A DNA stretch of 64,000 nucleotides from Candidatus Omnitrophota bacterium (GTDB taxonomy: Bacteria > Omnitrophota > Gorgyraeia > 2-01-FULL-45-10). Location of the stretch: NCBI GenBank assembly GCA_041650805.1, contig JBAZKM010000006.1, positions 17,837-81,836 on the forward strand, read 5' to 3'. The notes below the pieces were generated by a model, which saw only the letters and a list, made by a program, of their open reading frames with translations, was not told where the DNA came from and did no database searches. Position 1 is the stretch's first letter, and each line of letters opens with the position of its first letter. A program made the translations under genes and the position numbers. Positions 31,987 through 59,070 of this stretch are shown one piece after another.

Positions 31987-31996
31987 AAATAGGTGT

Positions 31997-33418: not shown

Positions 33419-33424
33419 TTTTGC

Positions 33425-33497
33425 GGTGGGCGTAGCTCAGTCCGCCTTCGCAATCAACGCGTAATAGATTAGGTGCTTCGGCGGATTTCGCACGAAT
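33425..33497 (+). repeat. 16-nt duplicate of the tRNA-His 5' end (33425-33440) followed by a ~57-nt 5' fragment of the MITE-like repeat (partial copy B)
   Basis: ggtgggcgtagctcag is identical to tRNA-His positions 1-16. It is followed by tccgccttcgcaatcaacgcg...ggtgcttcggcggattt, matching the first part of copies A and C. Confidence 0.7.
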
Positions 33498-33505
33498 AGT
33501 TTTAT

Positions 33506-33584
33506 GGTGGGCGTAGCTCAGCTTGGATAGAGCACCTGGCTGTGGCCCAGGGTGTCGCCGGTTCAAATCCGGTCGCCTACCCCA
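33506..33584 (+). tRNA. tRNA-His (anticodon GTG) with G-1 and discriminator C, CCA encoded
   Basis: G-1 followed by GTGGGCG paired with CGCCTAC (one G-U). Anticodon loop CUGUGGC. T-loop GGTTCAAATCC. Confidence 0.8.
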
Positions 33585-35489: not shown

Positions 35490-35498
35490 AGTTTTCTC

Positions 35499-35969
35499 TT
35501 ATAGTTTAAAGAAATCAAACGCATTCCAATTTGTACCTGTTATAACCAAGGTAACGGCAGATATGGACTTATAAATCTTACCCTCATACTCAAAGCCTCG
35601 TTCAAGCACTTTTACCTCGAGTTTTTTGCCCTTATACATCCTTATGATTTTGCTTCCCGGGATAGGTAGCCTTTTATCTCTAAATGGCCTGTATGAATAG
35701 TTCTGATTAGCGGCTTCTGGGTCAGGCCGGAGAACCTTATTATTAATGGGATCATACTTAGCAATAAGTTCCTTAATGCGTTTTTGCGCCTTTTCTGATA
35801 TGCTGCCATATTCGAGCTCCTGAAGCCTGTAAGCTATCCGCCTGATCAGATATCTTCTGTTATGCGAGAACTCACCCGGCTCCTTAAAGAGGCCCTTATA
35901 GGCCTCTTGCAGCTCGTAGGCATTCAGCTTAGTTATGGCTGCAATTTTGGCTTCTATTGGCTTTTCCAT
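35499..35969 (-). CDS. Small recombinase-associated protein (DUF2924-like)
   Basis: 156 aa. Located immediately upstream of, and co-oriented with, the large serine recombinase, the arrangement typical for DUF2924. Confidence 0.45.
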   Translation of the reverse strand: MEKPIEAKIAAITKLNAYELQEAYKGLFKEPGEFSHNRRYLIRRIAYRLQELEYGSISEKAQKRIKELIAKYDPINNKVLRPDPEAANQNYSYRPFRDKRLPIPGSKIIRMYKGKKLEVKVLERGFEYEGKIYKSISAVTLVITGTNWNAFDFFKL

Positions 35970-36111: not shown

Positions 36112-36288
36112 ATGGAAACTTTTACCGTAGAAGATTTAGCGAAATATCTTAAACTGCATACATTCACTGTCCGGCGCCTAGCCAGAGAAGGGAAGATACC
36201 ATCTTTCAAGGCTGGTGGGCAATGGCGGTTCCGCAAAGATGAGATAGAAAATTGGTCTCGAAATAACAGATCAGAAGGAAGTAAATGA
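36112..36288 (+). CDS. Excisionase-family helix-turn-helix DNA-binding protein (58 aa)
   Basis: METFTVEDLAKYLKLHTFTVRRLAREGKIPSFKAGGQWRFRKDEIENW matches the excisionase/MerR-like HTH pattern (…KVGGxWRFRKxDI). Stop overlaps the SNF2 start (ATGA). Not in the ORF track because it is under 60 aa. Confidence 0.7.
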   Translation: METFTVEDLAKYLKLHTFTVRRLAREGKIPSFKAGGQWRFRKDEIENWSRNNRSEGSK

Positions 36289-39227: not shown

Positions 39228-39235
39228 GGAGTCCT

Positions 39236-40924: not shown

Positions 40925-40925
40925 T

Positions 40926-43601: not shown

Positions 43602-43664
43602 TCTAATAAGTAATGAATATTTCCGAGAAATATATGAAAACAATAACTGTTAAAGAATGTTAGT

Positions 43665-44771
43665 ATGTCAAAAATTACTTCTACAATCTGGGAAATAGAG
43701 CCGCATACGGAAGCTAAGCATGCAATTTTAAGAAAATATTTAGATGCATGGTTGCCCATAATTAGCAGGTGGAATGGAAGGGTTGTTTACATTGATGGTT
43801 TCGCAGGGCCTGGCGAATATATAGGTGGTAAAGAAGGTTCCCCCATAATTGCAATTAAAGCCGTAATGGAGCATAGACTAAAGCTTCGGATGACCGCAGA
43901 ATTTATGTTTATTTTTATAGAAGCTGATACTGAAAGATGCGAGTATTTACAAACAAAACTTAGTGCGTTAAAATTGCCTTCTAATTTAAAATATGAATGT
44001 GTCTGTAAAAAATTTGAAGACGTAATAAAGAGTACGTTAAATAAGTTAGATGAGCAAAAAACGAGGCTTGCCCCCTCCTTTGTTTTTATTGATCCGTTTG
44101 GTTATTCAGGCATCCCATTTGTATTAATAAAACGTATTATGGAAAATCCTAATTGTGAAGTTTTAATTACTTTTATGTATGAAGAAATTAATAGATTTGC
44201 GCAAGATACCAGGTCTGACAATATTTTAGATGAGACTTTCGGGACTGATAAGTGGCGCGAGGTACGAAAAGAAACAGATCCGAATAAGCGCTGTTATTAT
44301 CTTCACGATCTTTACAAAGGTCAATTACAGCATGAAGCTGGAATAAAGTTTGTTCGTTCATTTAAGATGATTAATAGTATGAATAAACCAGATTACTTTC
44401 TTTTCTTTGGCACTAATGAAATTACAGGATTGAAGAAAATGAAGGAAGCAATGTGGAGAGTTGATGAAACGGGCTCATTTCAATTTTCAGATGCTACGTA
44501 TGACCCTAATCAAGCCTTTTTGTTTGAGTTAGAACCAAATTATGTTAAGCTGAAAAATATTATCGTAAAGAATTTTAAAGGTAAAACAGTTAGCGTGGAA
44601 GAGCTTGAGAATTTTATTCTCACAGAAACGCCTTTTACTCAGAATCATTATAAGCGAGCAATTTTAGCAAAAATGGAAAAAACTGATCCTCCAGAAATTA
44701 AGGTTCAAAGTAAAGGCGCTAAAAGAAAAAAGGGGACATTCCCAGGTCAAACTACTATACAGTTTATTTAG
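43665..44771 (+). CDS. TcmP-like protein (three-Cys-motif partner protein family), with SAM-MTase-like motifs
   Basis: N-terminal TIWEIEPHTEAKHAILRKYLDAWLPI...YIDGFAGPGEY and FVFIDPFGYSG resemble the TcmP family (motif I/IV-like). Assignment from memory of the family signature. Confidence 0.45.
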   Translation: MSKITSTIWEIEPHTEAKHAILRKYLDAWLPIISRWNGRVVYIDGFAGPGEYIGGKEGSPIIAIKAVMEHRLKLRMTAEFMFIFIEADTERCEYLQTKLSALKLPSNLKYECVCKKFEDVIKSTLNKLDEQKTRLAPSFVFIDPFGYSGIPFVLIKRIMENPNCEVLITFMYEEINRFAQDTRSDNILDETFGTDKWREVRKETDPNKRCYYLHDLYKGQLQHEAGIKFVRSFKMINSMNKPDYFLFFGTNEITGLKKMKEAMWRVDETGSFQFSDATYDPNQAFLFELEPNYVKLKNIIVKNFKGKTVSVEELENFILTETPFTQNHYKRAILAKMEKTDPPEIKVQSKGAKRKKGTFPGQTTIQFI

Positions 44772-44783
44772 GTGAATTAAACA

Positions 44784-45569
44784 ATGCAAACCATAGACAG
44801 AAAAACATTGCTGTACAAAAGTGGCGTAGAATATGCCGACTTTTGCTTAAACCATGTGGAAGGGTGTTCTCACGGCTGTAAATACCCCTGCTATGCGTAC
44901 ATGATGAAGAGACGCTGTGGCATTGTTAAAACATATGATGAATGGTGCAAGCCAAAACTAGTGGCTAATGCATTAGAACTCTTGGATAAAGAGATACCTA
45001 AATATAAAGATACTATAAAATATGTCCATATGTGCTTTTCTACAGACCCATTTATGTATCAACAGGAACGGGTATGTGATCTAAGTTTAAAAATAATAGA
45101 TAAGCTTAACTTAAATGAAATCAGATGCACCGTATTGACCAAAGGTATTTTCCCAAGAGAAATTGCCAAAATAAATGGTTTTAGTAGAAATAATGAGTAT
45201 GGCGTTACATTAGTTTCTTTGGATGAAAAATTCCGCCAGAGTTATGAACCGAATGCAGCTCCATTTAGGAATAGGATTCAATCGCTCAAATATCTTCATG
45301 ATAAAGGATATAAAACATGGGTAAGCATGGAGCCGTACCCAACGCCTAATTTTATTGAACAAGATTTGAGAGAGATTTTAGATGCCGTATCATTTGTCGA
45401 TAAAATTATATTCGGACGTATAAACTACAATGCCAAGGCGTCGGAGTTTAAACATACGAAGGAATTCTATAATAACCTAGCCTGTTCAGTGGTAAAATTT
45501 TGTAAGCATCATAAAATTAATTATCATATCAAGCAAGGAACTCATACTGAAAATGAGAACCCATTCTAA
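44784..45569 (+). CDS. Three-Cys-motif (CxxxCxxxC) radical-SAM/SPL-like protein, partner of the TcmP-like protein
   Basis: NHVEGCSHGCKYPCYAY gives a Cys triad with 3-residue spacing instead of the canonical CxxxCxxC. 13 nt downstream of the TcmP-like gene. Confidence 0.45.
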   Translation: MQTIDRKTLLYKSGVEYADFCLNHVEGCSHGCKYPCYAYMMKRRCGIVKTYDEWCKPKLVANALELLDKEIPKYKDTIKYVHMCFSTDPFMYQQERVCDLSLKIIDKLNLNEIRCTVLTKGIFPREIAKINGFSRNNEYGVTLVSLDEKFRQSYEPNAAPFRNRIQSLKYLHDKGYKTWVSMEPYPTPNFIEQDLREILDAVSFVDKIIFGRINYNAKASEFKHTKEFYNNLACSVVKFCKHHKINYHIKQGTHTENENPF

Positions 45570-47136
45570 TCATATAAATATCTATAGACTCAAGCATGAG
45601 ATATCTAAAATCCCAGGGATATCGCTCGCGAGTATTGAACAGTCATATGAGATAGAAAAAGAAGCAACCGTGAATGGTATAAAATATAGGTTATATATTC
45701 AGCGAAGTTTTCCGCATACACCAAAGTGGTGCAGATTTCTCGATCAATTAATTGACAAATCTAAGCCTAAAATTAGATCAAGCACTTCTAGTTTTATATT
45801 ATTCGCAGAATATAATAGCAGGGCTTACGCTCTAACGGGCGGTTTTGGCCATACAAAAATAAAAGATCTTATTGATGAAGAGTTTGGGCTACATATGGCG
45901 CTTAGGTTAATAGACCCAAAATTGATAACTGGCATTTTCCAGAAATCGATGAAAGGCGATACGCGTCAAATTTATAGAGCTGTTATAGGCTACAAGCCGG
46001 AGCTAGATCTCGAGAATTTCAATAGAATTTTGAGGGCAGTTGAAGGTAAAACATCCGATAGATTTTTTGGCATGCGAGTTTCTGGGAGGGCATCCCTCTC
46101 TTTCAATTGTATGGTACCACTTTCTGAATTAAGCGTTTTATTTGATAAGTTAGAAGAGGTGTATAAAAAAGACAGCCCAATTTATTTCCCAAAATCTTAC
46201 GAACTGATTACAGACGATAAGCTTCTAAGTAAACTGGACAATATGTTAATTAAAGAGACCAATGATTTTATGGCAGCCAGAGAAGATAGGGACAGGCTTT
46301 ATATTGAATTAAAAGATATTAATTTGCAATTTAGAAGCACAAGATTTGAGCTTAAGGTGAAAAGGACTAAAAATGAATTCAAATATTTCAGTTTAGAAGA
46401 TATTCGCGATGCCCTAGCCAAAAATCAAACGACGCATTTTAACAAATGCGATGATATGTTGCACATTAAAATTAGCGGATTTGATGAGTCAAATAATGTT
46501 GTATTTGAAGATGAGCCGTTGTTGAAAATGTTAGTGTTTGAAGTCGATCATAACAATAGATCCTACTTTTTTATTGATAAAAAATGGTATCACATTTACC
46601 CAGATTTCAAGAACCATGTAGATTCAGACATTGCTCGTATTAGTGTGGATCGTCGTCTTATGCCTGCATGGGACGACAGTAAGTTAGGCGTGGGCAAGGG
46701 GGAAAGAGAATATAACATATATACAAGCGGATTGAAGGGATGGAACAACTTAGATAGGGATTGCGTGCGAATGACGGATGAAACCCCTATAGAGGTTTGC
46801 GATTTATACAATAAGATAAATCGTCAATTAATTCATGTTAAAAAAGTATGGGGATCAAAGACAAGTTATTTATTTGCTCAAGGTGCCGTGTCAGCGGAGG
46901 TGCTCTATCAGTCGCAGGAATTCAGGGATGCGTGCATAACAAAATGGCCCTCATTATTTGATCATACGTTACCGCAAGGGCATAGAGTAGTCTATGCGAT
47001 TGCTGATAATAAAACCCAAGACGCAAGTTTTCCCAGAAATTTAACTTTTTTTTCAAAAGTTAATTTAATGCAAACAGTATCACGATTAGAGATACTAGGG
47101 TATGATGTTATTTTAGCATCGATACGGGTTGACTAA
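45553..47136 (+). CDS. Hypothetical 527-aa protein in the defence cluster
   Basis: Long ORF with AT-rich codon usage like its neighbours. No motif recognised. Overlaps the previous gene's stop. Confidence 0.5.
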   Translation: MRTHSNHINIYRLKHEISKIPGISLASIEQSYEIEKEATVNGIKYRLYIQRSFPHTPKWCRFLDQLIDKSKPKIRSSTSSFILFAEYNSRAYALTGGFGHTKIKDLIDEEFGLHMALRLIDPKLITGIFQKSMKGDTRQIYRAVIGYKPELDLENFNRILRAVEGKTSDRFFGMRVSGRASLSFNCMVPLSELSVLFDKLEEVYKKDSPIYFPKSYELITDDKLLSKLDNMLIKETNDFMAAREDRDRLYIELKDINLQFRSTRFELKVKRTKNEFKYFSLEDIRDALAKNQTTHFNKCDDMLHIKISGFDESNNVVFEDEPLLKMLVFEVDHNNRSYFFIDKKWYHIYPDFKNHVDSDIARISVDRRLMPAWDDSKLGVGKGEREYNIYTSGLKGWNNLDRDCVRMTDETPIEVCDLYNKINRQLIHVKKVWGSKTSYLFAQGAVSAEVLYQSQEFRDACITKWPSLFDHTLPQGHRVVYAIADNKTQDASFPRNLTFFSKVNLMQTVSRLEILGYDVILASIRVD

Positions 47137-48609: not shown

Positions 48610-48939
48610 ATGTCACATTATTTCTTATGTGGATTGGAGTACAAGTGGGACTTGATTAGAGAAACATCCTCTAGCCAAAAGTTTATTGTTGATGTTGGCG
48701 ATTATTGGGGACTTAAAGCCACGTTCGATATCCATTACACAAAGCCTGAAATAGCGTATGTAACCGTATGTCTTATCGGGCCAAAGGAGTATTTTACTGA
48801 TGGGCTAAGCCATTGGTTGTTTGCTGATTTAGAAAAAATAATCGAAAAGCACGGTGACTATGGCGTCATAGATTATGCTCTCGTTTTCAGTGATCATTTG
48901 TGTAATGGAAATTACAGTATGGAGTCATTTTCAGCATAA
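48610..48939 (+). CDS. Hypothetical protein (109 aa)
   Basis: GGAGG RBS 7 nt upstream of ATG 48610. The long ORF-track start at 48487 is probably an upstream extension. Confidence 0.4.
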   Translation: MSHYFLCGLEYKWDLIRETSSSQKFIVDVGDYWGLKATFDIHYTKPEIAYVTVCLIGPKEYFTDGLSHWLFADLEKIIEKHGDYGVIDYALVFSDHLCNGNYSMESFSA

Positions 48940-48952
48940 AAAGGAGGACAAA

Positions 48953-50224
48953 ATGATAATAAGAAAAGTACCTGTGTCAGAGATCAATCCCGCTACTTAC
49001 AATCCGCGCGTGGATCTCAAGCCGAGCGATCCAGAGTACCAAAAGCTTAAAAAAAGCATAGATACTTTTGGATATATCGATCCGATTGTCTGGAATGAAA
49101 AGACAGGAAATTTGGTAGGGGGGCATCAAAGATTAAAAATTCTTATTGCATACGGCTTAAAGGAGATCGAGGCAAGCATAGTAAGCTTAGGTCTGGAGAA
49201 AGAGAAGTTGCTCAATCTCGCTTTAAACAAAGCATCCGGCCTATGGGATGAGGATAAACTTGCAGCGTTATTGGATGAGCTTATGAAGATGCCGGACTTG
49301 GATATTTCTATATCCGGTTTTGATTTGCCGGAAATCAGCCACTATATTGACCAGGCGCGTGATTTGGCAGATGACGATGACCTGGACTATCAGAAAGAGG
49401 CTGAGGCTATCATAACGCCTGAAACAAAAGAGGGGGAGCTGATTATTTTGGGTCCGCACAGGATATTATGTGGAGACTCAGCGAACCCGGAAGACCTAGC
49501 AAGGCTTATGAACGGTGAAAAGGCGGATATGGTCGATACAGACTATCCTTATAATGTGAACTATGGCGGAGGGGATAAGCCTGATCCTAATACGCGTCCC
49601 AAAGACTCGCGGAAATGGCCTCAGATCTATGCTGATAACATGCCTCAGGCAGAATATGAGATATGGATGAAGAAGGTGCTTACCAATATCAAGCACTGTG
49701 TAAGACCAGGGGCTGCGTTTTACATTTGGCAGGGATTACGCCAAATACCACCATTATGCCAAAGTCTAATTGACCTAAACTTTCACGTTTCGTGCATCAT
49801 CTGCTGGTTGAAGGAGTCGCCGGCAATCACATATGCAGATTACTGCTACAGGACGGAACAGTGTTTGTACGGATGGCTTGAGGGAGCGCCTCACTATTGG
49901 GCAGGTAAGCCTGCCGAAAGCAATGTCTGGGAGGTGCATAGAGACTCAACTAAGGCTTATAGCCATCCTACGCAAAAACCTGTGCAGTTAGGTCAGCACG
50001 CCATCAGAAATAGCTCCAAGATTAACGATATTGTCTTGGATGTATTTCTCGGAGGCGGAGGGATCCTTTTGGCAGCGGAAAGCCTTGGCAGGCGCTGTTA
50101 CGGCTGCGATAGAGATGCACGCTACATTGACGTCTGCGTAAAAAGGTATGGAAACCTAGTAAACATCGATAAGCTTTCACCTGAAATCCGTGAACGCTAC
50201 TTTTCTAAGGAGGTTACAAAATGA
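48953..50224 (+). CDS. ParB-like nuclease domain fused to a DNA (N6-adenine/N4-cytosine) methyltransferase (phage-type)
   Basis: ParB/Srx motif VGGHQRLKIL at the N-terminus. MTase motifs DTDYPYNV (DPPY-like) and SHPTQKPVQL. AAGGAGG RBS before ATG 48953. Confidence 0.75.
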   Translation: MIIRKVPVSEINPATYNPRVDLKPSDPEYQKLKKSIDTFGYIDPIVWNEKTGNLVGGHQRLKILIAYGLKEIEASIVSLGLEKEKLLNLALNKASGLWDEDKLAALLDELMKMPDLDISISGFDLPEISHYIDQARDLADDDDLDYQKEAEAIITPETKEGELIILGPHRILCGDSANPEDLARLMNGEKADMVDTDYPYNVNYGGGDKPDPNTRPKDSRKWPQIYADNMPQAEYEIWMKKVLTNIKHCVRPGAAFYIWQGLRQIPPLCQSLIDLNFHVSCIICWLKESPAITYADYCYRTEQCLYGWLEGAPHYWAGKPAESNVWEVHRDSTKAYSHPTQKPVQLGQHAIRNSSKINDIVLDVFLGGGGILLAAESLGRRCYGCDRDARYIDVCVKRYGNLVNIDKLSPEIRERYFSKEVTK

Positions 50225-50907
50225 CTTCAGAAACCGTAAATCAAAATCCTGATGAGCAGCCAATACTGGCGCTTATTCAACGCATTAAGGACGGTCTCTT
50301 TGATCCGAAGTTTCTTGCTAAGGATCAAAGAATTCAGTGTGTTGAGGTCTTGTCGGGCGAAGCAATGACAGAAGCTGTTATCGCGCAGTACCTAAAGGTC
50401 AGTATAAAAACGGTTACTCGAGATATCCAGGCTATCAGAGAACGGAACGCTCTGACACCGAATGTTAATTTTGCGAAGCAGATTATTGGTGAGCTTGTTC
50501 ACAAGGCGCGTTTACATCATGGACATCTCATGCGCCTTGCACGCAATAAAGAAACTTCAGCTGTAGCGAAGGTTCAGGCCGAGTTTTCCGCTTGGAGGGT
50601 CCTAAACGAAATGATCGAGCGACTGCAAACATTAGGTTATCTTCCGCAGCGTCCTACGGAAATCACCGGAGATCTATACCATCATCTTTCTGATGATTCT
50701 GAGAAGTCTATTGAGGAAATCAAAAAGATGATAATTGAGATTGAGGTGGTAAGTAAGGAAGCCGGTCAAGCGTCTCCAGAGGTAGAAGAGGAGCTTAAGC
50801 GCCTCAAGGATAAGATTGAGAAAGCAGAGATTATACAGCAGGTAAATAAATTATCTCAAAAGCAGCAGGAACCCAAACAAGACAAGGAGAATCAAAATGA
50901 CAAATAA
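50221..50907 (+). CDS. Putative terminase small subunit / HTH DNA-binding protein
   Basis: HTH (AQYLKVSIKTVTRDI), coiled-coil C-terminus. Immediately precedes and overlaps the large terminase. Confidence 0.45.
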   Translation: MTSETVNQNPDEQPILALIQRIKDGLFDPKFLAKDQRIQCVEVLSGEAMTEAVIAQYLKVSIKTVTRDIQAIRERNALTPNVNFAKQIIGELVHKARLHHGHLMRLARNKETSAVAKVQAEFSAWRVLNEMIERLQTLGYLPQRPTEITGDLYHHLSDDSEKSIEEIKKMIIEIEVVSKEAGQASPEVEEELKRLKDKIEKAEIIQQVNKLSQKQQEPKQDKENQNDK

Positions 50908-52522
50908 TCTATTTAATGATACATATTCTGTGATGCGTAAGGCAGGGGAGAAATCTATATATGCTTTTGCTAAGTATTTCATGCCGGAACATTTAAAGTA
51001 CCCACCTTCCCGGGCCCACCATGAGATATATGACTTGCTTCAGGAAATTACTCAGAAGCGTAACTGTAAGCTCGCCATAGCAGCGCCTAGAGATTTTGGT
51101 AAGTCGACTCTAATTACCCTCATCTATGTAATTTACACTATCTGCTATGCAAAAGAAAAGTTTATCGTGATATTAAGCAATACCTCATCGCAGGCAAAGC
51201 AGATTCTTGAGAACATCAGAAAGGAGCTAACCGAGAATGAGCGCTTGAAGGCTGCTTTTCCTAATATATTCGAGGCAGATGGCAGGCCTAAGCCACCGCG
51301 CTGGAGACAGGATGATATTATCACCAGAAATGGAGTTGAAATATTAGCTTTAGGTAGTGGCCAGCAGATCAGAGGAAGAAGATATGGCTCTGCCAGGCCT
51401 ACGCTTATTGTCGCTGATGACGTGGAAAGCCCTGAGAATACATTCTCATCTGAATCAAGAGACAAGCTAAAGGATTGGTTTAGTAAGTCGGTATTGCGAG
51501 CAGGCTCGGAATCAACCAATATCCTATATATAGGTAATTTGTACCACCCATACTGCCTTTTGAGCGAATATGTTAACCCCGAACTAAACCCGGGGTGGGT
51601 AAGTAAGGTTTATAAGGCACTTATTGCCTGGCCTACTCGCATAGATCTCTGGGAGAAGTGGCGTAATATCTATAACAACCGTGAGAAGGTCGACAATATA
51701 AGCGGTATAGAGGCAGCGCTAAAGTATTATCAGGCTAATACGCAGGCTATGGATGAAGGAGCTGTGCTTCTTTGGCCTGAGCGTCACTCGCTGCATAATC
51801 TCATGATTGCACGTGAGGAGAACGAGATTTCCTTCATGAGCGAGCTAATGAACAGCCCACTTGACTCGAAGCTATGTATCTTTAATGCCGATGATCTTCA
51901 CTATTGGGACGGCATATACCATAGCGTTGAGAATCTACTACATGCTTTGGGTGATAATGCGGAATTTTATGGAGCGTGCGATCCGTCTCTAGGGGGTCAA
52001 AACTTTAAAGGTGATTACTCGGCAATTGTTATTGTGGTTCGAGACAAACGAGATGGTATTTTGTACGTTATCGAAGCGGATATCAAGCGCCGGACTCCAA
52101 CCGAGACAATAGATGACATCCTGGCCTATTGCCAGCGTTATAAATTCGTACGTTTCGCAGTTGAAATAAATCAGTTTCAGAAGATGTTGTATGACCAGCT
52201 CGTTGAGAGCGCAAGAAAGCAGAGCAAGTATGCACCATTTGAGCAAGTGACTAACACAAGCGACAAGGTAAAGCGCATACAAGCGTTGCAGCCGTTAGTG
52301 AAGAATGGTACGATCAAATTCGCTAAGTTCTTAAGGCTTTTGCTTGAGCAGATGAGATACTTTCCAAAAGGAAAGTATGATGACGGATTAGATGCGCTTG
52401 AGATGGCCGTACAGGTAGCTGCGGAGAAACCAAGGACGATAACTATGACAATAGTTGGAGGTGACAGAGACGATTGGTATGGCGACTACCATAGAAATCT
52501 TGGGTGGCCAAAAATATTCTAA
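50897..52522 (+). CDS. Phage terminase large subunit
   Basis: Walker A AAPRDFGKST and Walker B LIVADDVE ATPase motifs. C-terminal nuclease-like region. 541 aa. Confidence 0.75.
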   Translation: MTNNLFNDTYSVMRKAGEKSIYAFAKYFMPEHLKYPPSRAHHEIYDLLQEITQKRNCKLAIAAPRDFGKSTLITLIYVIYTICYAKEKFIVILSNTSSQAKQILENIRKELTENERLKAAFPNIFEADGRPKPPRWRQDDIITRNGVEILALGSGQQIRGRRYGSARPTLIVADDVESPENTFSSESRDKLKDWFSKSVLRAGSESTNILYIGNLYHPYCLLSEYVNPELNPGWVSKVYKALIAWPTRIDLWEKWRNIYNNREKVDNISGIEAALKYYQANTQAMDEGAVLLWPERHSLHNLMIAREENEISFMSELMNSPLDSKLCIFNADDLHYWDGIYHSVENLLHALGDNAEFYGACDPSLGGQNFKGDYSAIVIVVRDKRDGILYVIEADIKRRTPTETIDDILAYCQRYKFVRFAVEINQFQKMLYDQLVESARKQSKYAPFEQVTNTSDKVKRIQALQPLVKNGTIKFAKFLRLLLEQMRYFPKGKYDDGLDALEMAVQVAAEKPRTITMTIVGGDRDDWYGDYHRNLGWPKIF

Positions 52523-52563: not shown

Positions 52564-52871
52564 TATATCCACAGATAGAAGTCGTCCCGATGTTGGAAGG
52601 GGTAAATCCCGGACGTTAAAAAAGAAAAACCTTCGAGTGGGTAAGTATGCCACCGAGGGTTTTTGTGTTTTATAAGACATATACGGCTTGTAGTTTAAGC
52701 CGATAACATAATTTCACAAGTTTTTGCACCTGGCGGATTGTTTCAATGGACAGTTTCATTTGTAGTAGCAGTCCTGTGTTTCAAGGGGGAACCTGGACTT
52801 TAAAAAAGTAAAACCTTCGCTAGCCATAATTTTGTGGCTGGCGGAGGTTTTTCTATTTTGAGGAGGGCGAT

Positions 52872-53330
52872 ATGGGAAGAATAGCAGGCATAACATTAGT
52901 TATGGTATTAGCTTGTTCATTAGCTTTTGCCGAAGAAAAGTATTTGGGAAGATTAAGTACAAACAAGATTGCCTCAGATTCTACAAGTAATCCTGTTGGT
53001 CAATACGGCAGCACTGTATCGCCAACTAGTATAAATAATCCTGTAGGCCAATTTGGAAGCTCTGTAAGCCCGAATAGCGCCCGTAATTCGCTTGCTACAG
53101 ATACACCTAAGCTATATAGTCAGGATGGGCACTATTTAGGTAAGGTGAGCAGTAATACGCTAGATCCAGACTCGATAAGTAATCCTGTGGGAAGATATGG
53201 CAGTTCCGTATCTCCCGATAGCGTACATAATCCAGTAGGTCGTTATGGAAGCAGCGTCAGTTCTGAAAGCGCTAATAACCCATTAGCTACTAACGCACCG
53301 AAGATAATCTATGGAGGAAATGATGAGTAA
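52872..53330 (+). CDS. Secreted repeat protein (4 x S-NPVGxYGSSVSP-S units)
   Basis: Signal peptide, then four ~30-aa repeats with core NPVG(Q/R)YGS(T/S)VSP. Confidence 0.55.
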   Translation: MGRIAGITLVMVLACSLAFAEEKYLGRLSTNKIASDSTSNPVGQYGSTVSPTSINNPVGQFGSSVSPNSARNSLATDTPKLYSQDGHYLGKVSSNTLDPDSISNPVGRYGSSVSPDSVHNPVGRYGSSVSSESANNPLATNAPKIIYGGNDE

Positions 53331-54300
53331 AAGTAAAGACGTGTATATGAAGATAATGGCGTTGGTTGTATTGGGGGTCATGGTTGCAGTTCCGATGTAT
53401 GCTCAAAACGCTGCAATCGATCAGGAGTTAGACGCGATTTATCAAAAAGCGTCGCATGCAATTGCCGAAAACAACATTGAGAAATCAGATTTTTATCTTG
53501 CTCGATATATGGGCCTCGCATTTACCAATGAAGATTCAAAGCATGGCTATAACGATCTAATTCCGCTATTTAAGCAGAGGAAAGATTTGGCCGGGTCAAC
53601 CGCATTCATATCAGGTCAGTATACCGATGAATTCTTAGACTTCTATTTTCGCGCGCCGGGTTTAATGTGGAGCATTCCAGATGAAGGAGTCGATGAGAAC
53701 ACTCTTGAGTTTGAGGTAAACGCTAGTTCTGATGGCAAATATTTCGCATCGCTTGTTATTTCACCACGCCTTGAGACTTGGTCGGTAATAAAAAAAGATA
53801 TCATGATTTCCGTAGTGCCTCTGGGCTCTAGTGTAAAACAGCCACGCATTGTTTCAGGCATTCTGAAGGACAATAAACCCTTAAGGCGGTTTCCGATAGT
53901 TGACCTTAATACTGATGATCACTTTTTGCATTATGTATGGCCTATTGAATTTTATGATTTGGATGGTGATGGTATCCCCGAAATATGGCTACGATATAAT
54001 CTCGCATGGGCGGATGGTTTTTCTCAGCGCCTTGATATTTATAAGATCATAAACGATAGCAAGCTAGTGTTATTGAAACGATTTGAGGGGGAAGCTGAAG
54101 GTATTGCGCGAAGACTGCCTGATAATAAAGTTGAAGTCGGATATGGGTTTTCTGATAAACCTGGCGGGCATTTGTACTTTGACCAATACCATTTTGATAT
54201 ATTTGAATATAAAAATGGAGATTTTGTGAAGGCCTCCGAAAGGAACGAGCCCCACATACTGAGAAGCGATAGCTGGCATAAATATTATGGCTTTGATTAA
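53311..54300 (+). CDS. Secreted hypothetical protein
   Basis: N-terminal signal peptide (VLGVMVAVPMYAQNA); 329 aa. Confidence 0.5.
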   Translation: MEEMMSKSKDVYMKIMALVVLGVMVAVPMYAQNAAIDQELDAIYQKASHAIAENNIEKSDFYLARYMGLAFTNEDSKHGYNDLIPLFKQRKDLAGSTAFISGQYTDEFLDFYFRAPGLMWSIPDEGVDENTLEFEVNASSDGKYFASLVISPRLETWSVIKKDIMISVVPLGSSVKQPRIVSGILKDNKPLRRFPIVDLNTDDHFLHYVWPIEFYDLDGDGIPEIWLRYNLAWADGFSQRLDIYKIINDSKLVLLKRFEGEAEGIARRLPDNKVEVGYGFSDKPGGHLYFDQYHFDIFEYKNGDFVKASERNEPHILRSDSWHKYYGFD

Positions 54301-54319
54301 ACGGAGGAAAGGAAACAAT

Positions 54320-55339
54320 ATGCGTAATGTATTATTGATTTTAATAATTGTAAGCTGTATCGCGTCAAACTCATTTGCTAGTGGCATGAGTAGTATGGAG
54401 AAAGGGATCATTAGGCTTGAATATATAGGTAGGCAAGTTCAAGCAATAGAGAATGAACTGCGCTTATACTACATGGCTAAAATTGAGGACCGCCCTGACG
54501 TTGAGCCTGTTGATGATGTTAACCAATTAATTAAATTAAAGCAGGAACTAAGTGCGCTGGATTTGCCTCAAGAAATCGCCGATTTAAAACCAGACCTATT
54601 AGGGGTTATTGATAAGTTAATAGATAATTGTAATGGCATTCTAAAGAAGGATGAGAAAGCGCGAGACAAAGAATTTGATGATTTTTGGAAGGAGGTAGGC
54701 GCTTTTAATGACAAGCTGAAGTCGAAAATTGATAAGTACCTATCTATCCCGGAGCTCGGCATAGATTTTAGTTTGGCAAATGAAGAAACGCGGCTTTTTA
54801 CTGATAGCAAAGACCAGACTGCATTTAAGCAGGCACTATCATATATTGACAAGAAAAAATATCAAGATGCTGTTAAGATCTTGGAGCCTCTTTTAAGCAA
54901 ATATAAAAACAAGCCTGCCGAAGGCAGTATCATTGTTAGAATTGCTGATTGTTATATTGTTAAGGATAGCCCTTTGAGCCAGCGTGGAGGCAATGAAGAA
55001 TATCTAATAGGCCTTCTGATCGATTTTATCAATCGAAAACAATATACTCCACAGATTCAACGCATTTATCTACAGTGGCGTACGCTAGAGCAATCTTATA
55101 ACAACGGTGCTTCGAACTGGTCGACTATGCCAAACGATCATTATAACGAAGTACTATTGGGGGTGGCTGAGGCTATCGAGAGACATATAGACCAGCACCC
55201 AGATGATTATTGGGCAAAATATCAGCTATTATTGCTTATGGATACCCCAATAATCGAAAGGTGGGGTAGGGGTTATCAATATGGTAATACAATGGCCCTA
55301 GACTATGCATTCTTAAATGGAATGCTTAACAAGGAGTGA
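54320..55339 (+). CDS. Secreted hypothetical protein
   Basis: GGAGG RBS before ATG 54320. Signal peptide LLILIIVSCIASNSFASG. Confidence 0.5.
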   Translation: MRNVLLILIIVSCIASNSFASGMSSMEKGIIRLEYIGRQVQAIENELRLYYMAKIEDRPDVEPVDDVNQLIKLKQELSALDLPQEIADLKPDLLGVIDKLIDNCNGILKKDEKARDKEFDDFWKEVGAFNDKLKSKIDKYLSIPELGIDFSLANEETRLFTDSKDQTAFKQALSYIDKKKYQDAVKILEPLLSKYKNKPAEGSIIVRIADCYIVKDSPLSQRGGNEEYLIGLLIDFINRKQYTPQIQRIYLQWRTLEQSYNNGASNWSTMPNDHYNEVLLGVAEAIERHIDQHPDDYWAKYQLLLLMDTPIIERWGRGYQYGNTMALDYAFLNGMLNKE

Positions 55340-55346
55340 GTGAACA

Positions 55347-56114
55347 ATGCCTATATTAAGAAAGATGTGCGCTGCTATGGCTTTAGCGAGTCTGTTGATT
55401 TGTGCAGAGGTTTATGCAGCGTCTGTTAGTGTTAAAGACGGCAACATTTTTTATATTAATAATGGAAAGAGCATGCAAATCACATCAAGTAATCATGATA
55501 ATAACCCTATGCTACATCCAGATGGCAGGTGGATATACTTCATTCGTGGCTCTGAAGGTAAATGGGTTGGGGAAAAGTTCTATCCACGCGAAGGGGCAGT
55601 AGTTAAAGATGGGTTACTTCATGATGAGCTCTGGCGCGTTAAAACTGATGGTACCGGCGCAATTATGTTGTTTCGCTCAGAGCACGCAGCTATTGACGGT
55701 CCGGATCCAGACTACTCTGTTGCGCATATAAATAGTATGCAGCTTTCACCAGATGGCGATAAGGTATATTTCGAAGCCTCTGAGTGGGTGACATCAGATG
55801 CTTTATATGTAATGAACGCAGACGGTTCAAATGCAAAGATGTTAGGCCCTGGTAATGATACAAAGATAATTTTATCAGCTAGAACATTCGATGATCGAGA
55901 GAGTGACTATAAGGGGTACATTATCACAAATCAACACAGATATTTCCTATACGGTGGTTCTTATGATTGGTATTATTTGTTCACGCCTGACCTAAAAAAA
56001 GAAATAGCGCCTTTGGGAGATGATTTTGATTATTTTACAGAAATGGGTGATATAATATATACAGATCATAGTGAAAAGACCATTCAAAGAAGCGAAAAGA
56101 TAAAGGGCTTATGA
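55347..56114 (+). CDS. Secreted TolB-like beta-propeller (PD40-repeat) protein
   Basis: Signal peptide. Repeated DG(R/D)xxYF / SPDGDKVYF / MNADGSNAKML motifs typical of PD40 repeats. Confidence 0.5.
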   Translation: MPILRKMCAAMALASLLICAEVYAASVSVKDGNIFYINNGKSMQITSSNHDNNPMLHPDGRWIYFIRGSEGKWVGEKFYPREGAVVKDGLLHDELWRVKTDGTGAIMLFRSEHAAIDGPDPDYSVAHINSMQLSPDGDKVYFEASEWVTSDALYVMNADGSNAKMLGPGNDTKIILSARTFDDRESDYKGYIITNQHRYFLYGGSYDWYYLFTPDLKKEIAPLGDDFDYFTEMGDIIYTDHSEKTIQRSEKIKGL

Positions 56115-56584
56115 AAGAATATTGTCACTATCGGATGATTCTTTTAAATAGAAAAATATCATTCCTAGAATACAAAACCAAGGGCGAGGCATTTGCTAAA
56201 ACCGAAACATTTCTACGGCCAGTTACATCCAAAAGCTTACCCAAGATTTATATTATAAAAAATCGCGGTGAAATCATATATATAGGGATTGCGTCACAAA
56301 GCATTGCAAACCGGCTGCGTTATGGGTTTAGTGCTAAGGGGAGAGGTGGATACCACGGATATCGATGGAGGGATTTAGTCGATAAAATTGATCTTCTGGT
56401 GTGGTGTTTTCCAGGCCAATCTATGCATTATGTAGAATCGATTGAAGCAGAAATAGTTTTTGCATTGCGTCGCGATACTGGTAAATGGCCAGCATTTCAG
56501 ACAGAGATCCATTTTCATAATGTGACAGATGAAGAAAAGAAGCTGGCTTCTTCAATTTATAGTGAAGCGTCCAAAACTGCGTAG
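56111..56584 (+). CDS. Hypothetical protein with a GIY-YIG-like motif
   Basis: KIYIIKNRGEIIYIGIASQSIANRLRYGF resembles the GIY...YIG...R core. Weak. Confidence 0.35.
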   Translation: MKEYCHYRMILLNRKISFLEYKTKGEAFAKTETFLRPVTSKSLPKIYIIKNRGEIIYIGIASQSIANRLRYGFSAKGRGGYHGYRWRDLVDKIDLLVWCFPGQSMHYVESIEAEIVFALRRDTGKWPAFQTEIHFHNVTDEEKKLASSIYSEASKTA

Positions 56585-56592
56585 AAAATCTT

Positions 56593-57609
56593 ATGCTAAC
56601 CGACAATATATTCAAGTTGCTAAAGAAAGTAAGCAAAGACGAAGATCAGCTTTCCGCGGCTTTTGGTTTTTTGCTTAAAGAGGATAGTGAGATTCTGCGT
56701 CATTTCTTAAGCAAATTAGGGATTCAGCTTAATAAACAGGAACTAAAAAGAGTTGATATCGAAACGCTAGTTCCATATGTGTTTAAATCAAAAACTAGTA
56801 TTATTGATCTCCAGTTAGAGATACCGGGCAAATATCTTATTTTTCTTGAGTCGAAAATAGTTCCAACCAAGACCGAGAGAATCATAGCTCAAATTAAGCC
56901 TTATAACGATATTCTCAGGCATAAAGAAGATGGGTACGAAGGCGGTACGCACTTAGTATATGTGGCGAAGGATTCGATAGATAAGCGGCAAATAGATAGC
57001 ATACAAAGAAGCTTGTGTAGAAGCGCTAATGAATTTGAATTCTTTTCATGGGAAAATCTGTTAGCGCTAGTGGTGAGTTGTAAAAGAAAAAATAGGCGAC
57101 TAATAGAATTATTTAGTGATTACATAGGAGACGCTATGCATAGTAAAAAAGTTATAAATGAGCAAAAAATCAAAAACATATCAGACGTTCTCGTCGTATT
57201 TACAAATCCCGCATTCTGGCAAATGACTCTCCAAAGAAATATAGTAGTGCAAAGCCGAAGTGGTCCTGATGCTCGCTACATAGCATTCCTTAGAACGCAT
57301 TTACCTCGGGAAAGAAGCGGGATTACACATATAGCCGAAGTTGATTATACAGAATTAAGGCCAAGAAATGAGATGTTTGAAAAGGTAGACAAGGAAACAA
57401 GGTGTCAACTCGAGCAGCATATGAAAGCTCGAGATATCGATCTTGAAGGCCTACACAAAGCTTATATCCTAAAGCCAGGCTCATTAAAAAAGCTGCATCA
57501 TAAAATTGATCATTACGGATCGGGGCCAATGGTTAAGTTTAGCGCAAAGATGGGTGACTTACTATGCGCGAAAACCACCAAAGATATCAAAAAAGGTAAA
57601 AAAGTATAA
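56593..57609 (+). CDS. Hypothetical protein with a PD-(D/E)xK-like nuclease motif
   Basis: SIIDLQLEIPGKYLIFLESKIV fits the D...E-x-K pattern. Confidence 0.35.
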   Translation: MLTDNIFKLLKKVSKDEDQLSAAFGFLLKEDSEILRHFLSKLGIQLNKQELKRVDIETLVPYVFKSKTSIIDLQLEIPGKYLIFLESKIVPTKTERIIAQIKPYNDILRHKEDGYEGGTHLVYVAKDSIDKRQIDSIQRSLCRSANEFEFFSWENLLALVVSCKRKNRRLIELFSDYIGDAMHSKKVINEQKIKNISDVLVVFTNPAFWQMTLQRNIVVQSRSGPDARYIAFLRTHLPRERSGITHIAEVDYTELRPRNEMFEKVDKETRCQLEQHMKARDIDLEGLHKAYILKPGSLKKLHHKIDHYGSGPMVKFSAKMGDLLCAKTTKDIKKGKKV

Positions 57610-57615
57610 ATTCCT

Positions 57616-58695
57616 ATGTCGATGAATAAAATAGCATGTTTCATAGCTATGGCTTTCGACCATCCTGATACAGACAAAATCTACGATAGTATTTTGTTAC
57701 CCATGTTAAAAAGCAAGAATATTGCTGCTCGAAGGATTGATCGCATACAGCATAATGATGATATTACTACTCGAATTATAGAAGAAATTAATTCTGCAGA
57801 CTTTTGTATTGCAGACTTAACATTCGCGCGACCAAGCGTGTATTATGAGGCTGGGTATGCAGAGAGAGGCATACCCGTTATCTATATTATGCGAAAAGAT
57901 CATTTTAAGCATAAGCCGGAGGATGAGCACGGTAATTTTAGAGCGCATTTTGACGTACAGGTAAAGAATATTATACCGTGGGTTAGTTACAATGACGCTG
58001 TCTTTAAAAAGAAGCTCAGGAAAAGAATAGAATACATAATGAGGCCCATTGAGAAGATGCGGAAAGAAATAGCAGTTCTAGATAACGAAAAACTTCATTT
58101 TGCTTCTTTATCGTTATTCGAAAAAGTTCAATATTGTAAGACAGAATTAGAAAGTTATTTTAGGAAATATAAATTTCATAAGTTTCCTAGAGAAAGGGAA
58201 GGGGATAGGCATAGTACTAGAGAAGAGAAAAGAGATGCGCAGTATTTAGTCAAAGGGCAAACTGGTTTTTATTCCGATAATCTGGTTTTTTGGAAACCAT
58301 CCAAAAGTATTCTTCGCAATATTGGGTCTCACTATACCTACTGGTTTGGTGTAGGGAGTATTTATAAAACAATCCTAGAGAAATGCAGGAAGAATATCAC
58401 TGGTCTCATATATTTTAGTGTAATAGTTTCTCCTAACAAGGTTTTAGCTAGTAGTATCGCAGAAGCCCTGAGTGGATATAGAAATGCAGCCTATAAAGAT
58501 CTAAAGTACTTTTTTGTTGATGTTCGTAAAGAGCCGATCGAAATATCGAAAAATAAGACAGTCAAACTGAAAATAACCTCTCTATTCATTGTAATAGATA
58601 ATGTTCAGTCCAAGCGAGATTTATCGCTAAAATATAACCAAATATTTGATTTTGTTGTTGATCAATCCGATAGGCTATTATCGAGAAGGTATTAG
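57616..58695 (+). CDS. Nucleoside 2-deoxyribosyltransferase-like / TIR-like (SLOG-type) domain protein with unknown C-terminal domain
   Basis: N-terminal CFIAMAFDHP...ADFCIADLTFARPSVYYEAGYAERGIPVIYI matches the PF05014-like pattern (DLS...NV.fElGyA...KPvi). Confidence 0.4.
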   Translation: MSMNKIACFIAMAFDHPDTDKIYDSILLPMLKSKNIAARRIDRIQHNDDITTRIIEEINSADFCIADLTFARPSVYYEAGYAERGIPVIYIMRKDHFKHKPEDEHGNFRAHFDVQVKNIIPWVSYNDAVFKKKLRKRIEYIMRPIEKMRKEIAVLDNEKLHFASLSLFEKVQYCKTELESYFRKYKFHKFPREREGDRHSTREEKRDAQYLVKGQTGFYSDNLVFWKPSKSILRNIGSHYTYWFGVGSIYKTILEKCRKNITGLIYFSVIVSPNKVLASSIAEALSGYRNAAYKDLKYFFVDVRKEPIEISKNKTVKLKITSLFIVIDNVQSKRDLSLKYNQIFDFVVDQSDRLLSRRY

Positions 58696-58919
58696 TATGT
58701 TGAAATGTCCACCTATTTGAAGAGGACATTAGCTATCAATTTGTATCTAAAAGAGTTGCATCATTCCTGGACAAAAAAGACAGGACAAATCGGACATTTT
58801 TCATAGGGACCATACTATGAGAATAGCGGAATTTCATTGATAACAAGGGTATTTCGGCTATAATAGATACTTGAGGATTTACATAGGTCTGTCCCCAGGT
58901 GAGAAGGGGAGCGACCCCA

Positions 58920-59067
58920 TCCGCCTTCGCATTCAAGGCGTAAAGTGACAGAATGCTTCGGCGGATTTTATCCGCCATAGCCATCATGCTATAATATGCT
59001 GAAGGCGACGGCGGATGAGCCCGCCGAAGCATTCTGTTGCGCTCCGTTGAATGCGAAGGCGGGCCAC
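58920..59067 (+). repeat. Copy C of the ~148-nt MITE-like structured repeat
   Basis: Near-identical to 31839-31986 with about 6 substitutions. Same terminal inverted repeats. Confidence 0.8.
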
Positions 59068-59070
59068 TAA

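Follow-up and report, generated by a model that had tools for sequence, protein, structure and literature searches.

Introduction

Fusions of a base-sensing domain of the PUA superfamily to a nuclease form a recognised group of modification-dependent restriction enzymes: for EVE-PD(D/E)XK and PUA-nuclease fusions, membership in Type IV is established or predicted (PMC6765204, PMC7641849), and Lutz et al. reported N-terminal sensing domains for the characterised modification-dependent enzymes. A second field of comparison is the TIR-DrHyd-SLOG clade, for which a classification is available (PMC9503650). It is in this context that Swarozyc, a single-gene abortive-infection system composed of a DUF4062 TIR-like NADase and an auxiliary domain (bioRxiv 10.64898/2026.05.01.722283), and the NDT-like effector of retron Ec86 (bioRxiv 10.1101/2023.08.16.553469) are of interest here, both being functional precedents for the third gene described below. 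A third is the GIY-YIG superfamily with the UvrC N-domain, T4 EndoII and UPF0213-type proteins.

Here we analyse three adjacent genes, A, B and C, each of which shows likeness to one of these groups. They are encoded in a window of 64,000 nucleotides from a Candidatus Omnitrophota bacterium (contig JBAZKM010000006.1, positions 17,837 to 81,836). An earlier note on this DNA had taken them as suggestive of an uncharacterised defence or toxin module, and genes packed so closely at the edge of an island do bring a three-gene system to mind. Comparative context leads us to a different reading, according to which the trio probably consists of three accessory genes, each working by itself, that have collected at the far end of an integrative island of ~25 kb and low GC content. 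We regard the locus as ordinary defence-island cargo with C as its most interesting candidate, and none of the readings presented here would overturn current ideas.

Results and discussion

The three genes lie at the end of a low-GC island

All three ORFs are present on the + strand exactly where the earlier note had placed them, i.e. A at 56111-56584 (157 aa), B at 56593-57609 (338 aa) and C at 57616-58695 (359 aa), with spacers of 8 nt between A and B and 6 nt between B and C. A and the unrelated PD40 secreted-protein gene upstream of it share 4 nt, and the stretch from a hairpin at 52810-52851 up to C is free of terminator-like sites, so the close packing is a feature of the whole 7-gene stretch and does not single out the trio. 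Within C, a terminator-like site at 57852-57877 shows a weak T tail. The GC content drops to 35-46% from ~34 kb to 59 kb of the window, a large serine recombinase gene is located at 33888-35489, and host-type genes resume beyond C (MscS-like, 59213), supporting the placement of the trio at the right end of an island. Other restriction or defence cargo is already present on this island, as are two N6/N4 DNA methyltransferases, and a bona fide GIY-YIG protein separate from A is encoded elsewhere in the window. Pfam and Rfam scans of the island genes revealed no reverse transcriptase with ncRNA, no CD-NTase and no ThsA.

The motifs recognised earlier in the three proteins are not due to chance, being invariant in homologues of A (39 sequences), B (36 sequences) and C (50 sequences). 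NCBIfam gave no match for A, B or C, and PADLOC (2023) returned a weak TIR match for C while leaving A and B unrecognised; the weak library matches of all three proteins are backed by family profiles and predicted structures. At the superfamily level the three domain assignments stand, with two corrections: B contains a PUA-like reader in addition to its PD-(D/E)xK domain, and C belongs to the NDT/DrHyd-TIR group instead of SLOG. For each gene by itself, a defence or toxin role is plausible: the genes lie on an island and are patchily distributed, homologues of A and B have neighbourhoods rich in defence genes, and C combines an effector with a variable domain.

Gene C combines an NDT/TIR-like domain with a hypervariable C-terminal domain

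C (57616..58695, +; WC515_05550, annotated as hypothetical protein) is composed of a putative NDT/TIR-like effector domain, a helical linker and a variable C-terminal domain, as judged from its ORF, homologues and structural model (pLDDT 82, pTM 0.76). The nucleoside-2-deoxyribosyltransferase/TIR-like (DrHyd-type) N-domain comprises residues 1-125 (57616..57990, +). Invariant residues are D67, R72, S74-V75-Y76 and E78-A79-G80. The peptide ADLTFARPSVYYEAGYA (residues 66-82; 57811-57861, +), quoted in the earlier note, holds the candidate catalytic Glu E78. In the model, E78 is located in the helix following strand 3, corresponding to the NDT/TIR catalytic position, and the preceding IADLT segment aligns with IADLS of T. 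brucei NDRT; the domain thereby displays the characteristics of the NDT fold, both in its Rossmannoid core and in the placement of this Glu. The closest structural match is MilB, a hydroxymethyl-CMP hydrolase. A single-sequence search of C against the PDB gave nothing useful, and C itself stays below the PF05014 cut-off (E=0.028, 15 bits, cut-off 28.8); PF05014 matches at E<0.01 were obtained for 31 of 50 relatives, the best at 9e-7. By sequence, the N-domain is not a member of the TIR Pfam families. LOG-type structural matches (TM1055/1rcu 10.0, YgdH 9.9, TT1887 9.9) rank below those to NDT and TIR proteins, and neither C nor its relatives match the SLOG Pfam families. The N-domain falls into the NDT/DrHyd-TIR part of the TIR-DrHyd-SLOG clade, outside SLOG proper.

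Compared to the NDT/DrHyd superfamily (PF05014; MilB, Rcl/DNPH1, retron Ec86 effector), C has 230 extra residues. It furthermore contains a family-specific conserved insert, DHF...HFDxQxKNIIxW (57898-57981, +), whose invariant D95, H96, D103, H111 and D113 lie outside the PF05014 coverage. The N-domain is followed by two long helices (residues 128-184; 57997..58167, +; DSSP on the model: H128-164 and H167-184), predicted with a pLDDT of 91-97 and showing a mean pairwise identity of 27% in the family; this linker is likely an oligomerisation element. Residues 190-359 (58183..58692, +) form an alpha/beta domain that is hypervariable, with a mean pairwise identity of 15% against 61% for the N-domain, and is a putative sensor or specificity domain. 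A phmmer search with these residues against 1.84 billion representative proteins recovered just 2 true relatives, no Pfam or PDB match was obtained, and in a viral fold library C was matched in its N-domain alone, the C-terminal domain remaining unmatched.

The family is sizeable and phylogenetically broad, with at least 404 homologous clusters (90% identity) from many phyla; a pattern search of 185,579 species genomes gave 73 hits, distributed sparsely and patchily over many phyla. tblastn found no C in 50,697 phage genomes. In plasmid proteins of Bacillus and Leptospira the conserved N-domain of C is placed C-terminally, and among the plasmid relatives one lies beside a SEFIR-domain protein and an integrase occurs as neighbour as well. 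Most neighbours of C homologues are housekeeping genes and a minority are RM, GmrSD or resolvase genes, so that the association of C with defence islands is weak. Full-length homologues are found solitary beside a V-ATPase operon or lipid-kinase and acetyltransferase genes. An overlapping 200-aa ORF following one homologue (L001), which belongs to no Pfam family, led us to consider the gene after C as a conserved partner; this was rejected, as none of the neighbours in the 73 other C loci recurs, and of 61 same-strand genes downstream just 7 are within 50 nt.

The pairing of a conserved NDT/TIR-like domain with an almost orphan, diverging domain is the signature of an immune effector-sensor protein. 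This suggests a model according to which the fast-evolving C-terminal domain would sense an infection cue, C would oligomerise via the two long helices, and E78 of the assembled N-domains would break an N-glycosidic bond in NAD+ or a (deoxy)nucleotide, the depletion of which would abort the infection. Should C prove to deplete NAD+ or nucleotides upon infection, it would add a further single-gene system to the TIR-DrHyd-SLOG immune repertoire. In a more specific form, which we put forward tentatively and consider possible at best, C would be an uncharacterised, widespread single-gene abortive-infection family in which a conserved NDT/DrHyd-like N-glycosidase with the invariant Asp/His insert (D95-H96...H111-x-D113) is switched on by the hypervariable sensor through coiled-coil assembly. 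With MilB as the closest structural match, C may act on a deoxynucleotide (phage-type, modified) in place of NAD+, and C would then complement B in an islet directed against phages with modified genomes.

Like Swarozyc, C is a single gene that combines a TIR/NDT-like Rossmannoid domain, having a conserved Glu, with an auxiliary C-terminal domain. In contrast to Swarozyc, DUF4062 is absent from C (E<=1) and from 50 relatives (E<=0.01), the N-domain is nearer to PF05014, and no relationship between the C-terminal domains is discernible; a portal trigger or NADase activity would be conjectural for C. Different from the retron Ec86 effector, C has no retron reverse transcriptase or ncRNA nearby. 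Membership of C in CBASS, Thoeris, retron (type II-A) or Swarozyc systems was rejected, the respective partner genes and DUF4062 being absent.

Sensitive searches revealed no housekeeping function for A or B, and the mostly housekeeping neighbours raise this possibility weakly for C. C might be a non-immune salvage or housekeeping nucleotide enzyme of the deoxyribosyltransferase, Rcl/DNPH1 or MilB nucleotide-hydrolase type. We consider this doubtful: the family is sparse and patchy, a hypervariable and near-orphan domain of 170 residues is unexpected in a metabolic enzyme, C is located on a mobile island, plasmid-borne relatives adjoin a SEFIR-domain protein or an integrase, and C matches PHROG families at 3e-15 and 4e-14, with RM, GmrSD and resolvase genes among the minority neighbours.

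Gene A encodes a predicted stand-alone GIY-YIG-superfamily nuclease

ORF, homologues and profiles identify A (56111..56584, +; WC515_05540, annotated as hypothetical protein) as a stand-alone member of the GIY-YIG nuclease superfamily. Its GIY...YIG motif KIYIIKNRGEIIYIG (residues 45-59; 56243..56287, +) is supported by invariant columns and by the register with UvrC, KIY47...IY57IG...R68 corresponding to UvrC Y19/Y29/R39, with ~10 residues between the two half-motifs and the Arg following. K45, Y47, Y57, the catalytic-type R68 (within 56309-56326, +), E112 and E114 of an IEAEIV motif (56441-56458, +) and the stretch Q130-F135 (QTEIHF, 56498-56515, +) are invariant in the homologue alignment. 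The invariant E112, E114, Q130, E132 and H134 are candidates for the counterparts of UvrC E76/N88. A scores just under the Pfam PF01541 cut-off (E=1.8e-4, 22.2 bits, cut-off 22.6); precomputed PF01541 matches exist for several homologues, the family profile matches the UvrC GIY-YIG domain in the PDB (E=0.0012), and hhalign aligns A to the bona fide GIY-YIG protein of the window at E=9e-5.

A has invariant Tyr, Tyr, Arg and Glu residues, is in register with Y19/Y29/R39 of UvrC, and differs from known members of the superfamily by a ~40-residue N-terminal extension, by an invariant WPxxQTEIHF C-terminal motif and by the lack of a fused DNA-binding or partner domain. It represents a separate, small, uncharacterised family of 43 clusters, with homologues at 31-87% identity, the neighbours of which include type I RM, Eco57I, DUF559, PLD nuclease, DndB-like and AbiU2 genes. 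A may act as a minimal GIY-YIG nuclease that, using Y47, Y57, R68 and E112/E114, nicks or cleaves invading DNA on its own; such an anti-phage role and substrate would fit these neighbourhoods. A NucS_C-type neighbour at L012 raised the question whether A is constantly paired with some PD-(D/E)xK nuclease, which is ruled out by L016 and L153-L157.

A and B occur together elsewhere once only, in a close relative, the metagenome contig L011. The shared 1.5-kb block (56088..57596, +; blastn, L011 128-1642) is 77% identical at the nucleotide level and has sharp boundaries, and its flanks are unrelated on both sides, with an upstream ORF without match and a Hist_deacetyl-family gene downstream in place of C. 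This indicates some persistence of the pair and, together with the 8-nt spacer, would fit a two-gene nuclease cassette, either of cooperating nucleases or with A as the homing-type mobilising component, next to which C is an unrelated neighbour. Such a cassette is nonetheless unlikely, since B homologues at 71-78% identity (L005/L019, L017, L018, L021, L022, L023) lack an upstream A and A homologues at 50-66% identity lack B. We also count against a homing function that A, with its 157 aa, has no DNA-binding domain of the type present in GIY-YIG homing endonucleases. At a hotspot downstream of pbpC, B is present in one genome and A in another.

Gene B is a predicted Type IV restriction endonuclease with reversed domain order

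The ORF and domain architecture of B (56593..57609, +) suggest a two-domain Type IV, i.e. modification-dependent, restriction endonuclease. Its predicted structure (pLDDT 88) shows an N-terminal PD-(D/E)xK nuclease domain (~residues 1-180; 56593..57132, +) with an alpha-beta-beta-beta-alpha-beta core and the D...(D/E)xK residues on consecutive strands. E17 (in 56641-56655, +), D72 (in 56800-56814, +) and E86-S87-K88 (in 56845-56859, +), all of catalytic type, are invariant among the aligned sequences, which share 38-78% identity, and B exceeds the cut-off of Pfam PF14281 (PDDEXK_4; E=7e-5, 23.3 bits, cut-off 22.3). The C-terminal domain (~residues 185-338; 57145..57606, +) is PUA-like (EVE/ASCH/YTH-type), matching modified-base readers of six PUA-like families and not sequence-specific DNA-binding folds, and is a putative modified-base reader. 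This reader domain is found in bacteria and archaea and was undetected by sequence models; against the PDB, a single-sequence search gave nothing useful and the family profile of B no match.

B resembles VcaM4I and TspA15I (EVE-HNH), YenY4I (PUA-DUF3427-PD-(D/E)XK) (PMC6765204, PMC7897488, PMC7641849) and the predicted EVE-PD(D/E)XK enzymes of Bell et al. 2020 in uniting a PUA-like reader and a nuclease with intact motif in one polypeptide. By this fusion B belongs with the Type IV PUA-nuclease enzymes, a class not strictly defined by the reader-first order of the characterised enzymes, from which B departs in having the nuclease first and the reader last. It thus adds a reversed-order architecture to the catalogue of PUA-like-nuclease Type IV enzymes and is of some interest for epigenetic-base detection tools. 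B also resembles these enzymes in having neighbourhoods rich in defence genes, its homologues being accompanied by Eco57I, a Gabija-like OLD+UvrD pair, Mrr, MTases and IetA-like genes. It may likewise be a stand-alone gene. tblastn found no B in 50,697 phage genomes or 72,556 plasmids. By prediction, the PUA-like domain binds modified bases of foreign DNA by base flipping, upon which the PD-(D/E)xK domain (E17/D72/E86/K88) would cut nearby, giving B a presumed anti-phage role. As two N6/N4 MTases are encoded on the island, the specificity of the reader would have to avoid their marks.

Alternatively, B could be a restriction or repair nuclease of the ordinary (Type II-like) kind, with a C-terminal domain that serves DNA binding only, and maybe paired with one of the island methyltransferases. 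We judge this quite improbable: no MTase adjoins B, those of the island being located 6.4 kb and 15.7 kb upstream as parts of other gene sets (SNF2-MTase-Res; ParB-MTase), an adjacent MTase is missing from most B loci, with MTases near a minority of them (3+3+1 MTase-domain matches among 96 neighbour proteins), and the likeness of the C-terminal domain is to base readers instead of sequence-specific folds.

The three genes do not travel together

Comparison of the homologous loci argues for three independent cargo genes. The other two genes were found at none of 59 other B loci and A or B at none of 73 other C loci, denominators that overstate the number of independent observations as the compared contigs are often short and some loci are duplicates (e.g. 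L005/L019/L020 and L009/L028). Restricting the B loci to those with sufficient flanking DNA gave 0/46 with A upstream and 0/30 with C downstream. Given these counts and the adjacency of A and B in one close relative only, the module reading of the earlier note is unsupported. One three-component system, with signalling or metabolite depletion by the NDT/TIR-like protein and the nucleases as effectors, would be favoured by the shared direction of the genes, their spacing of 8 nt and 6 nt, the lack of a convincing terminator between them, the island-edge position and the conflict-type catalytic domains of A, B and C, yet is very improbable in view of the B and C loci lacking the other genes, the Hist_deacetyl-family gene as third gene at L011, the full-length C homologues standing alone and the packing that continues into unrelated upstream secreted-protein genes.

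A hairpin element at the island boundary

A near-perfect hairpin element of ~150 nt is located at 58920..59070 (+), 225 nt past the stop of C, and a second copy lies at 31839-31989 directly after a tRNA-Arg, the direct copies being 92% identical. We considered the resulting 166-nt direct repeat (31824-31989 and 58905-59070) as an att duplication bounding the island. This was dropped because the repeat consists of the ~150-nt hairpin element, a third partial copy occurs at 33441, and serine recombinases are not known to make long target duplications. The 5' arm of the hairpin gave three matches, with 0 expected, and its RNA fold has a predicted energy of -98 kcal/mol (z=-12.5).

Genes A, B and C at the right-hand edge of a low-GC island

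The GIY-YIG-like gene A (56111-56584, 157 aa), the PD-(D/E)xK-like gene B (56593-57609, 338 aa) and gene C (57616-58695, 359 aa), which encodes a nucleoside deoxyribosyltransferase (NDT)/TIR-like protein, are open reading frames on the plus strand, co-directional and packed exactly as the earlier note had placed them, with spacers of 8 nt (A-B) and 6 nt (B-C). The window originates from a Candidatus Omnitrophota MAG and the three proteins are 100% identical to NCBI entries from a 169-kb contig. The trio was correctly assigned to the right end of an island, since it ends a low-GC segment at positions ~34-59 kb (35-46% GC; flanks 50-58% on the left and 44-50% on the right) and host-type genes (MscS-like and others) are back from 59213 on.

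The low-GC segment starts with a large serine recombinase and a DUF2924 protein (33888-35969, minus strand). Its cargo within 36285-47136 comprises an SNF2 helicase, an N6/N4 methyltransferase and a ResIII helicase with a TnsA-like nuclease end as well as a GMT-wHTH (TcmP-like) protein, a radical-SAM protein and DUF6119, these two sets being candidates for other defence sets in the same island. Further cargo includes a MerR regulator and, at 48875-52522, genes for a DNA methyltransferase fused to ParB-N, for a small HTH protein and for a terminase-large-subunit-like product (Terminase_6C). As the island has no other phage structural genes, this stretch points to a remnant phage or a satellite-like element. 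Four tightly packed genes for signal-peptide proteins (52872-56114, plus strand as for the trio) directly precede gene A, the first of which (52872-53330) contains repeats of an NPVGxYGSxVSPxS motif.

Independent occurrence of the three genes

HMMs built for the three genes were run against every ORF of 63 metagenome loci with B relatives and 73 species-genome loci with C relatives. Neither A nor C was detected in any of the 59 loci containing a clear B (upstream sequence of 600 nt or more in 46, downstream sequence of 1100 nt or more in 30), and neither A nor B was found in any of the 73 C loci, arguing against the earlier proposal that the trio forms one defence or toxin module. The closest full-length homologues of C adjoin a V-ATPase operon or lipid-kinase and acetyltransferase genes. 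Adjacency of A and B was observed in one place elsewhere, contig L011 (A 87%, B 75% identical), in which a 1.5-kb block shows 77% DNA identity to window positions 56088-57596; both flanks of this block differ from the window, with a histone-deacetylase-family gene downstream. Elsewhere, no A accompanies the B homologues that are comparably close (71-78%), and no B accompanies A homologues of 50-66% identity. Tight spacing is not specific to the trio, as A overlaps by 4 nt the gene upstream, which encodes the last of the four signal-peptide proteins, a secreted protein with PD40 beta-propeller repeats. From a strong hairpin at 52810-52851 up to gene C there is no terminator-like site, and the T tail of the one within C (57852-57877) is weak. 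Judged from these sequence comparisons, the three-gene "module" appears to be an accident of island accretion. The analysis shows that A, B and C are independent and establishes their motifs and folds, each gene being a new, uncharacterised representative of a known kind whose substrate, trigger and defence role we infer.

The slot downstream of a pbpC orthologue (85% identical) carries different cargo in different loci. In L005/L019 (about 4750-9340) it holds an unknown gene of 397 aa together with a homologue of B and a small RM system, a GIY-YIG protein of 87 aa, a methyltransferase and a MutH-like nuclease being encoded there, whereas in L156/L157, from related metagenomic genomes, it holds an A homologue and an unrelated protein of >327 aa with a weak DUF6361 match. 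The slot is a variable hotspot of exchangeable cargo and looks like a defence hotspot. Neighbours of A homologues include type I HsdR, Eco57I, DUF559, a PLD nuclease, DndB-like, AbiU2 and a resolvase, and those of B homologues include Eco57I-type enzymes, a Gabija-like OLD+UvrD pair, Mrr, FtsK, methyltransferases, T5orf172, PLD and IetA-like genes, among others, together with many unrelated genes. C homologues are mostly neighboured by housekeeping genes and in a minority by type I RM, GmrSD, Eco57I or a resolvase; their neighbouring genes contain no recurrent partner.

Gene A encodes a GIY-YIG protein

Gene A has 43 homologous clusters, and the GIY..YIG-like motif noted from the sequence is real; residues invariant in an alignment of 39 homologues are K45, Y47, Y57, R68, G72, G83, Y84, E112, E114, R120, W126, P127 and Q130-T-E-I-H-F135. 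The family profile matches the UvrC GIY-YIG domain in the PDB (E=0.0012), with Y47/Y57/R68 falling on UvrC Y19/Y29/R39, and by hhalign it matches the clear GIY-YIG protein of the window (31970-32242; PF01541 at 5.8e-15) with E=9e-5. Protein A itself scores 22.2 bits on PF01541, marginally below the cut-off of 22.6. We propose that A would be a minimal GIY-YIG nuclease working alone.

Gene B encodes a reversed-order fusion of nuclease and PUA-like domains

For B we obtained 69 full-length homologues from bacteria and archaea (38-78% identity, about 330-345 aa). In 36 sequences E17, D72 and E86-S87-K88 are invariant, bearing out the D..ExK motif, and the C-terminal half has invariant residues of its own (Q220, Y229, F232, I244, A248, V250, H288, K289). 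PDDEXK_4 of Pfam covers residues 4-169 with a score exceeding the cut-off. The predicted structure (pLDDT 88) has two domains, an N-domain of alpha-beta-beta-beta-alpha-beta topology placing D72 and E86/K88 on neighbouring strands and a mostly beta C-domain. B is matched by the PD-(D/E)xK nucleases AF1548 (10.1), Can2 (9.1), R.BspD6I (8.5), NucS (8.2) and FokI (8.2), additionally by MspJI, AspBHI and NgoMIV, and by the PUA-like modified-base readers PH1033 EVE (8.6), Zymomonas ASCH (8.3), the S. marinus McrB N-domain (8.2), YTHDC1 (7.6), VcaM4I (7.5), THYN1 (7.3) and several further YTH and ASCH proteins; Pfam sequence models gave no match for the PUA-like reader.

Modification-dependent (Type IV) restriction enzymes have just such an architecture, a nuclease fused with a PUA-like reader (PMC6765204, PMC7897488), and EVE-PD(D/E)XK fusions are predicted Type IV enzymes (PMC7641849). 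Characterised PUA-nuclease enzymes carry the sensing domain at the N-terminus and rarely have a PD-(D/E)XK partner (Lutz et al.), whereas in B the order is reversed, with the nuclease N-terminal and the reader C-terminal. B is an uncharacterised reversed-order PUA-nuclease fusion with a predicted restriction role, in which the PD-(D/E)xK domain would cut DNA whose modified base is bound by the reader domain, with a specificity that would have to spare the marks of the island's own N6/N4 methyltransferases.

Gene C encodes an NDT/TIR-like protein with a variable C-domain

Gene C, with 404 homologous clusters, is the most promising of the three for experimental follow-up. Its predicted structure (pLDDT 82, pTM 0.76) divides into a Rossmannoid N-domain (residues 1-125), a pair of long helices (128-184) and an alpha/beta C-domain (~200-359), for which mean pairwise identity within the family falls from 61% (N-domain) to 27% (helical linker) and 15% (C-domain). 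Many positions of the N-terminal 125 residues are invariant in 50 aligned sequences, including D67, R72, S74, V75, Y76, E78, A79 and G80, which substantiates the motif ADLTFARPSVYYEAGYA picked out by the earlier note, and further D95, H96, D103, H111, D113 and W122. At the sequence level 31/50 relatives match PF05014, two CAP12-PCTIR_TIR, one TIR_2 and none DUF4062, and in the profile alignment ..IADLT falls on ..IADLS from T. brucei NDRT. The catalytic Glu of NDT and TIR enzymes is located in the helix that follows strand 3; E78 is found in the corresponding helix of C and by analogy would occupy this catalytic position. The TIR-DrHyd-SLOG classification is that of PMC9503650.

With the C-domain (residues 190-359) as query, phmmer run over all 1.84 billion representatives returned only two true relatives. 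The catalytic domain is a mobile module joined to varied partner domains, because the same conserved domain sits C-terminally instead in more distant relatives, namely phrog_16139 and the ~320-aa proteins annotated as nucleoside 2-deoxyribosyltransferase on Bacillus mycoides and Leptospira plasmids. On Leptospira interrogans plasmid p4 (L160, 2958-5384) the relative's gene directly follows that of a SEFIR-domain protein, and on B. mycoides plasmid pl395 (L159, 4419-5372) its neighbours are a site-specific integrase and a regulator of the ArpU family. In Ca. Kaelpia (L001), which has the closest full-length homologue (38% identity), a 200-aa ORF (9047-9649) overlaps the homologue's stop by 7 nt and is followed by an rve integrase; this ORF matches no Pfam family and has no counterpart in the window.

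In the model we propose, the variable C-domain would sense an infection cue, the helices would drive assembly, and the assembled NDT/TIR-like domains would hydrolyse NAD+ or a nucleotide via E78. Precedents are Swarozyc (bioRxiv 10.64898/2026.05.01.722283) and the NDT-like effector of retron Ec86 (bioRxiv 10.1101/2023.08.16.553469).

A repeated hairpin element and the tmRNA gene

Two copies of a near-perfect hairpin element of ~150 nt, in direct orientation and 92% identical, bracket the whole 31.8-59.1 kb segment, one immediately 3' of tRNA-Arg (31839-31989) and the second 225 nt beyond gene C (58920-59070). The RNA fold reaches -98 kcal/mol (z=-12.5), no Rfam family was matched, and the element looks MITE/REP-like. 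A 45-nt fragment of its 5' part (33441-33485) is wedged between two 37-nt copies of a duplicated tRNA-His 5' region (33404-33440 and 33485-33521). The window also carries a tmRNA gene (24076-24487; Rfam 169 bits), for which ARAGORN predicts an unusually long tag peptide of 31 aa, ADNVKVPATVNELLATMQVVPGPVLPQALPL, whose end differs from the usual ..LAA.
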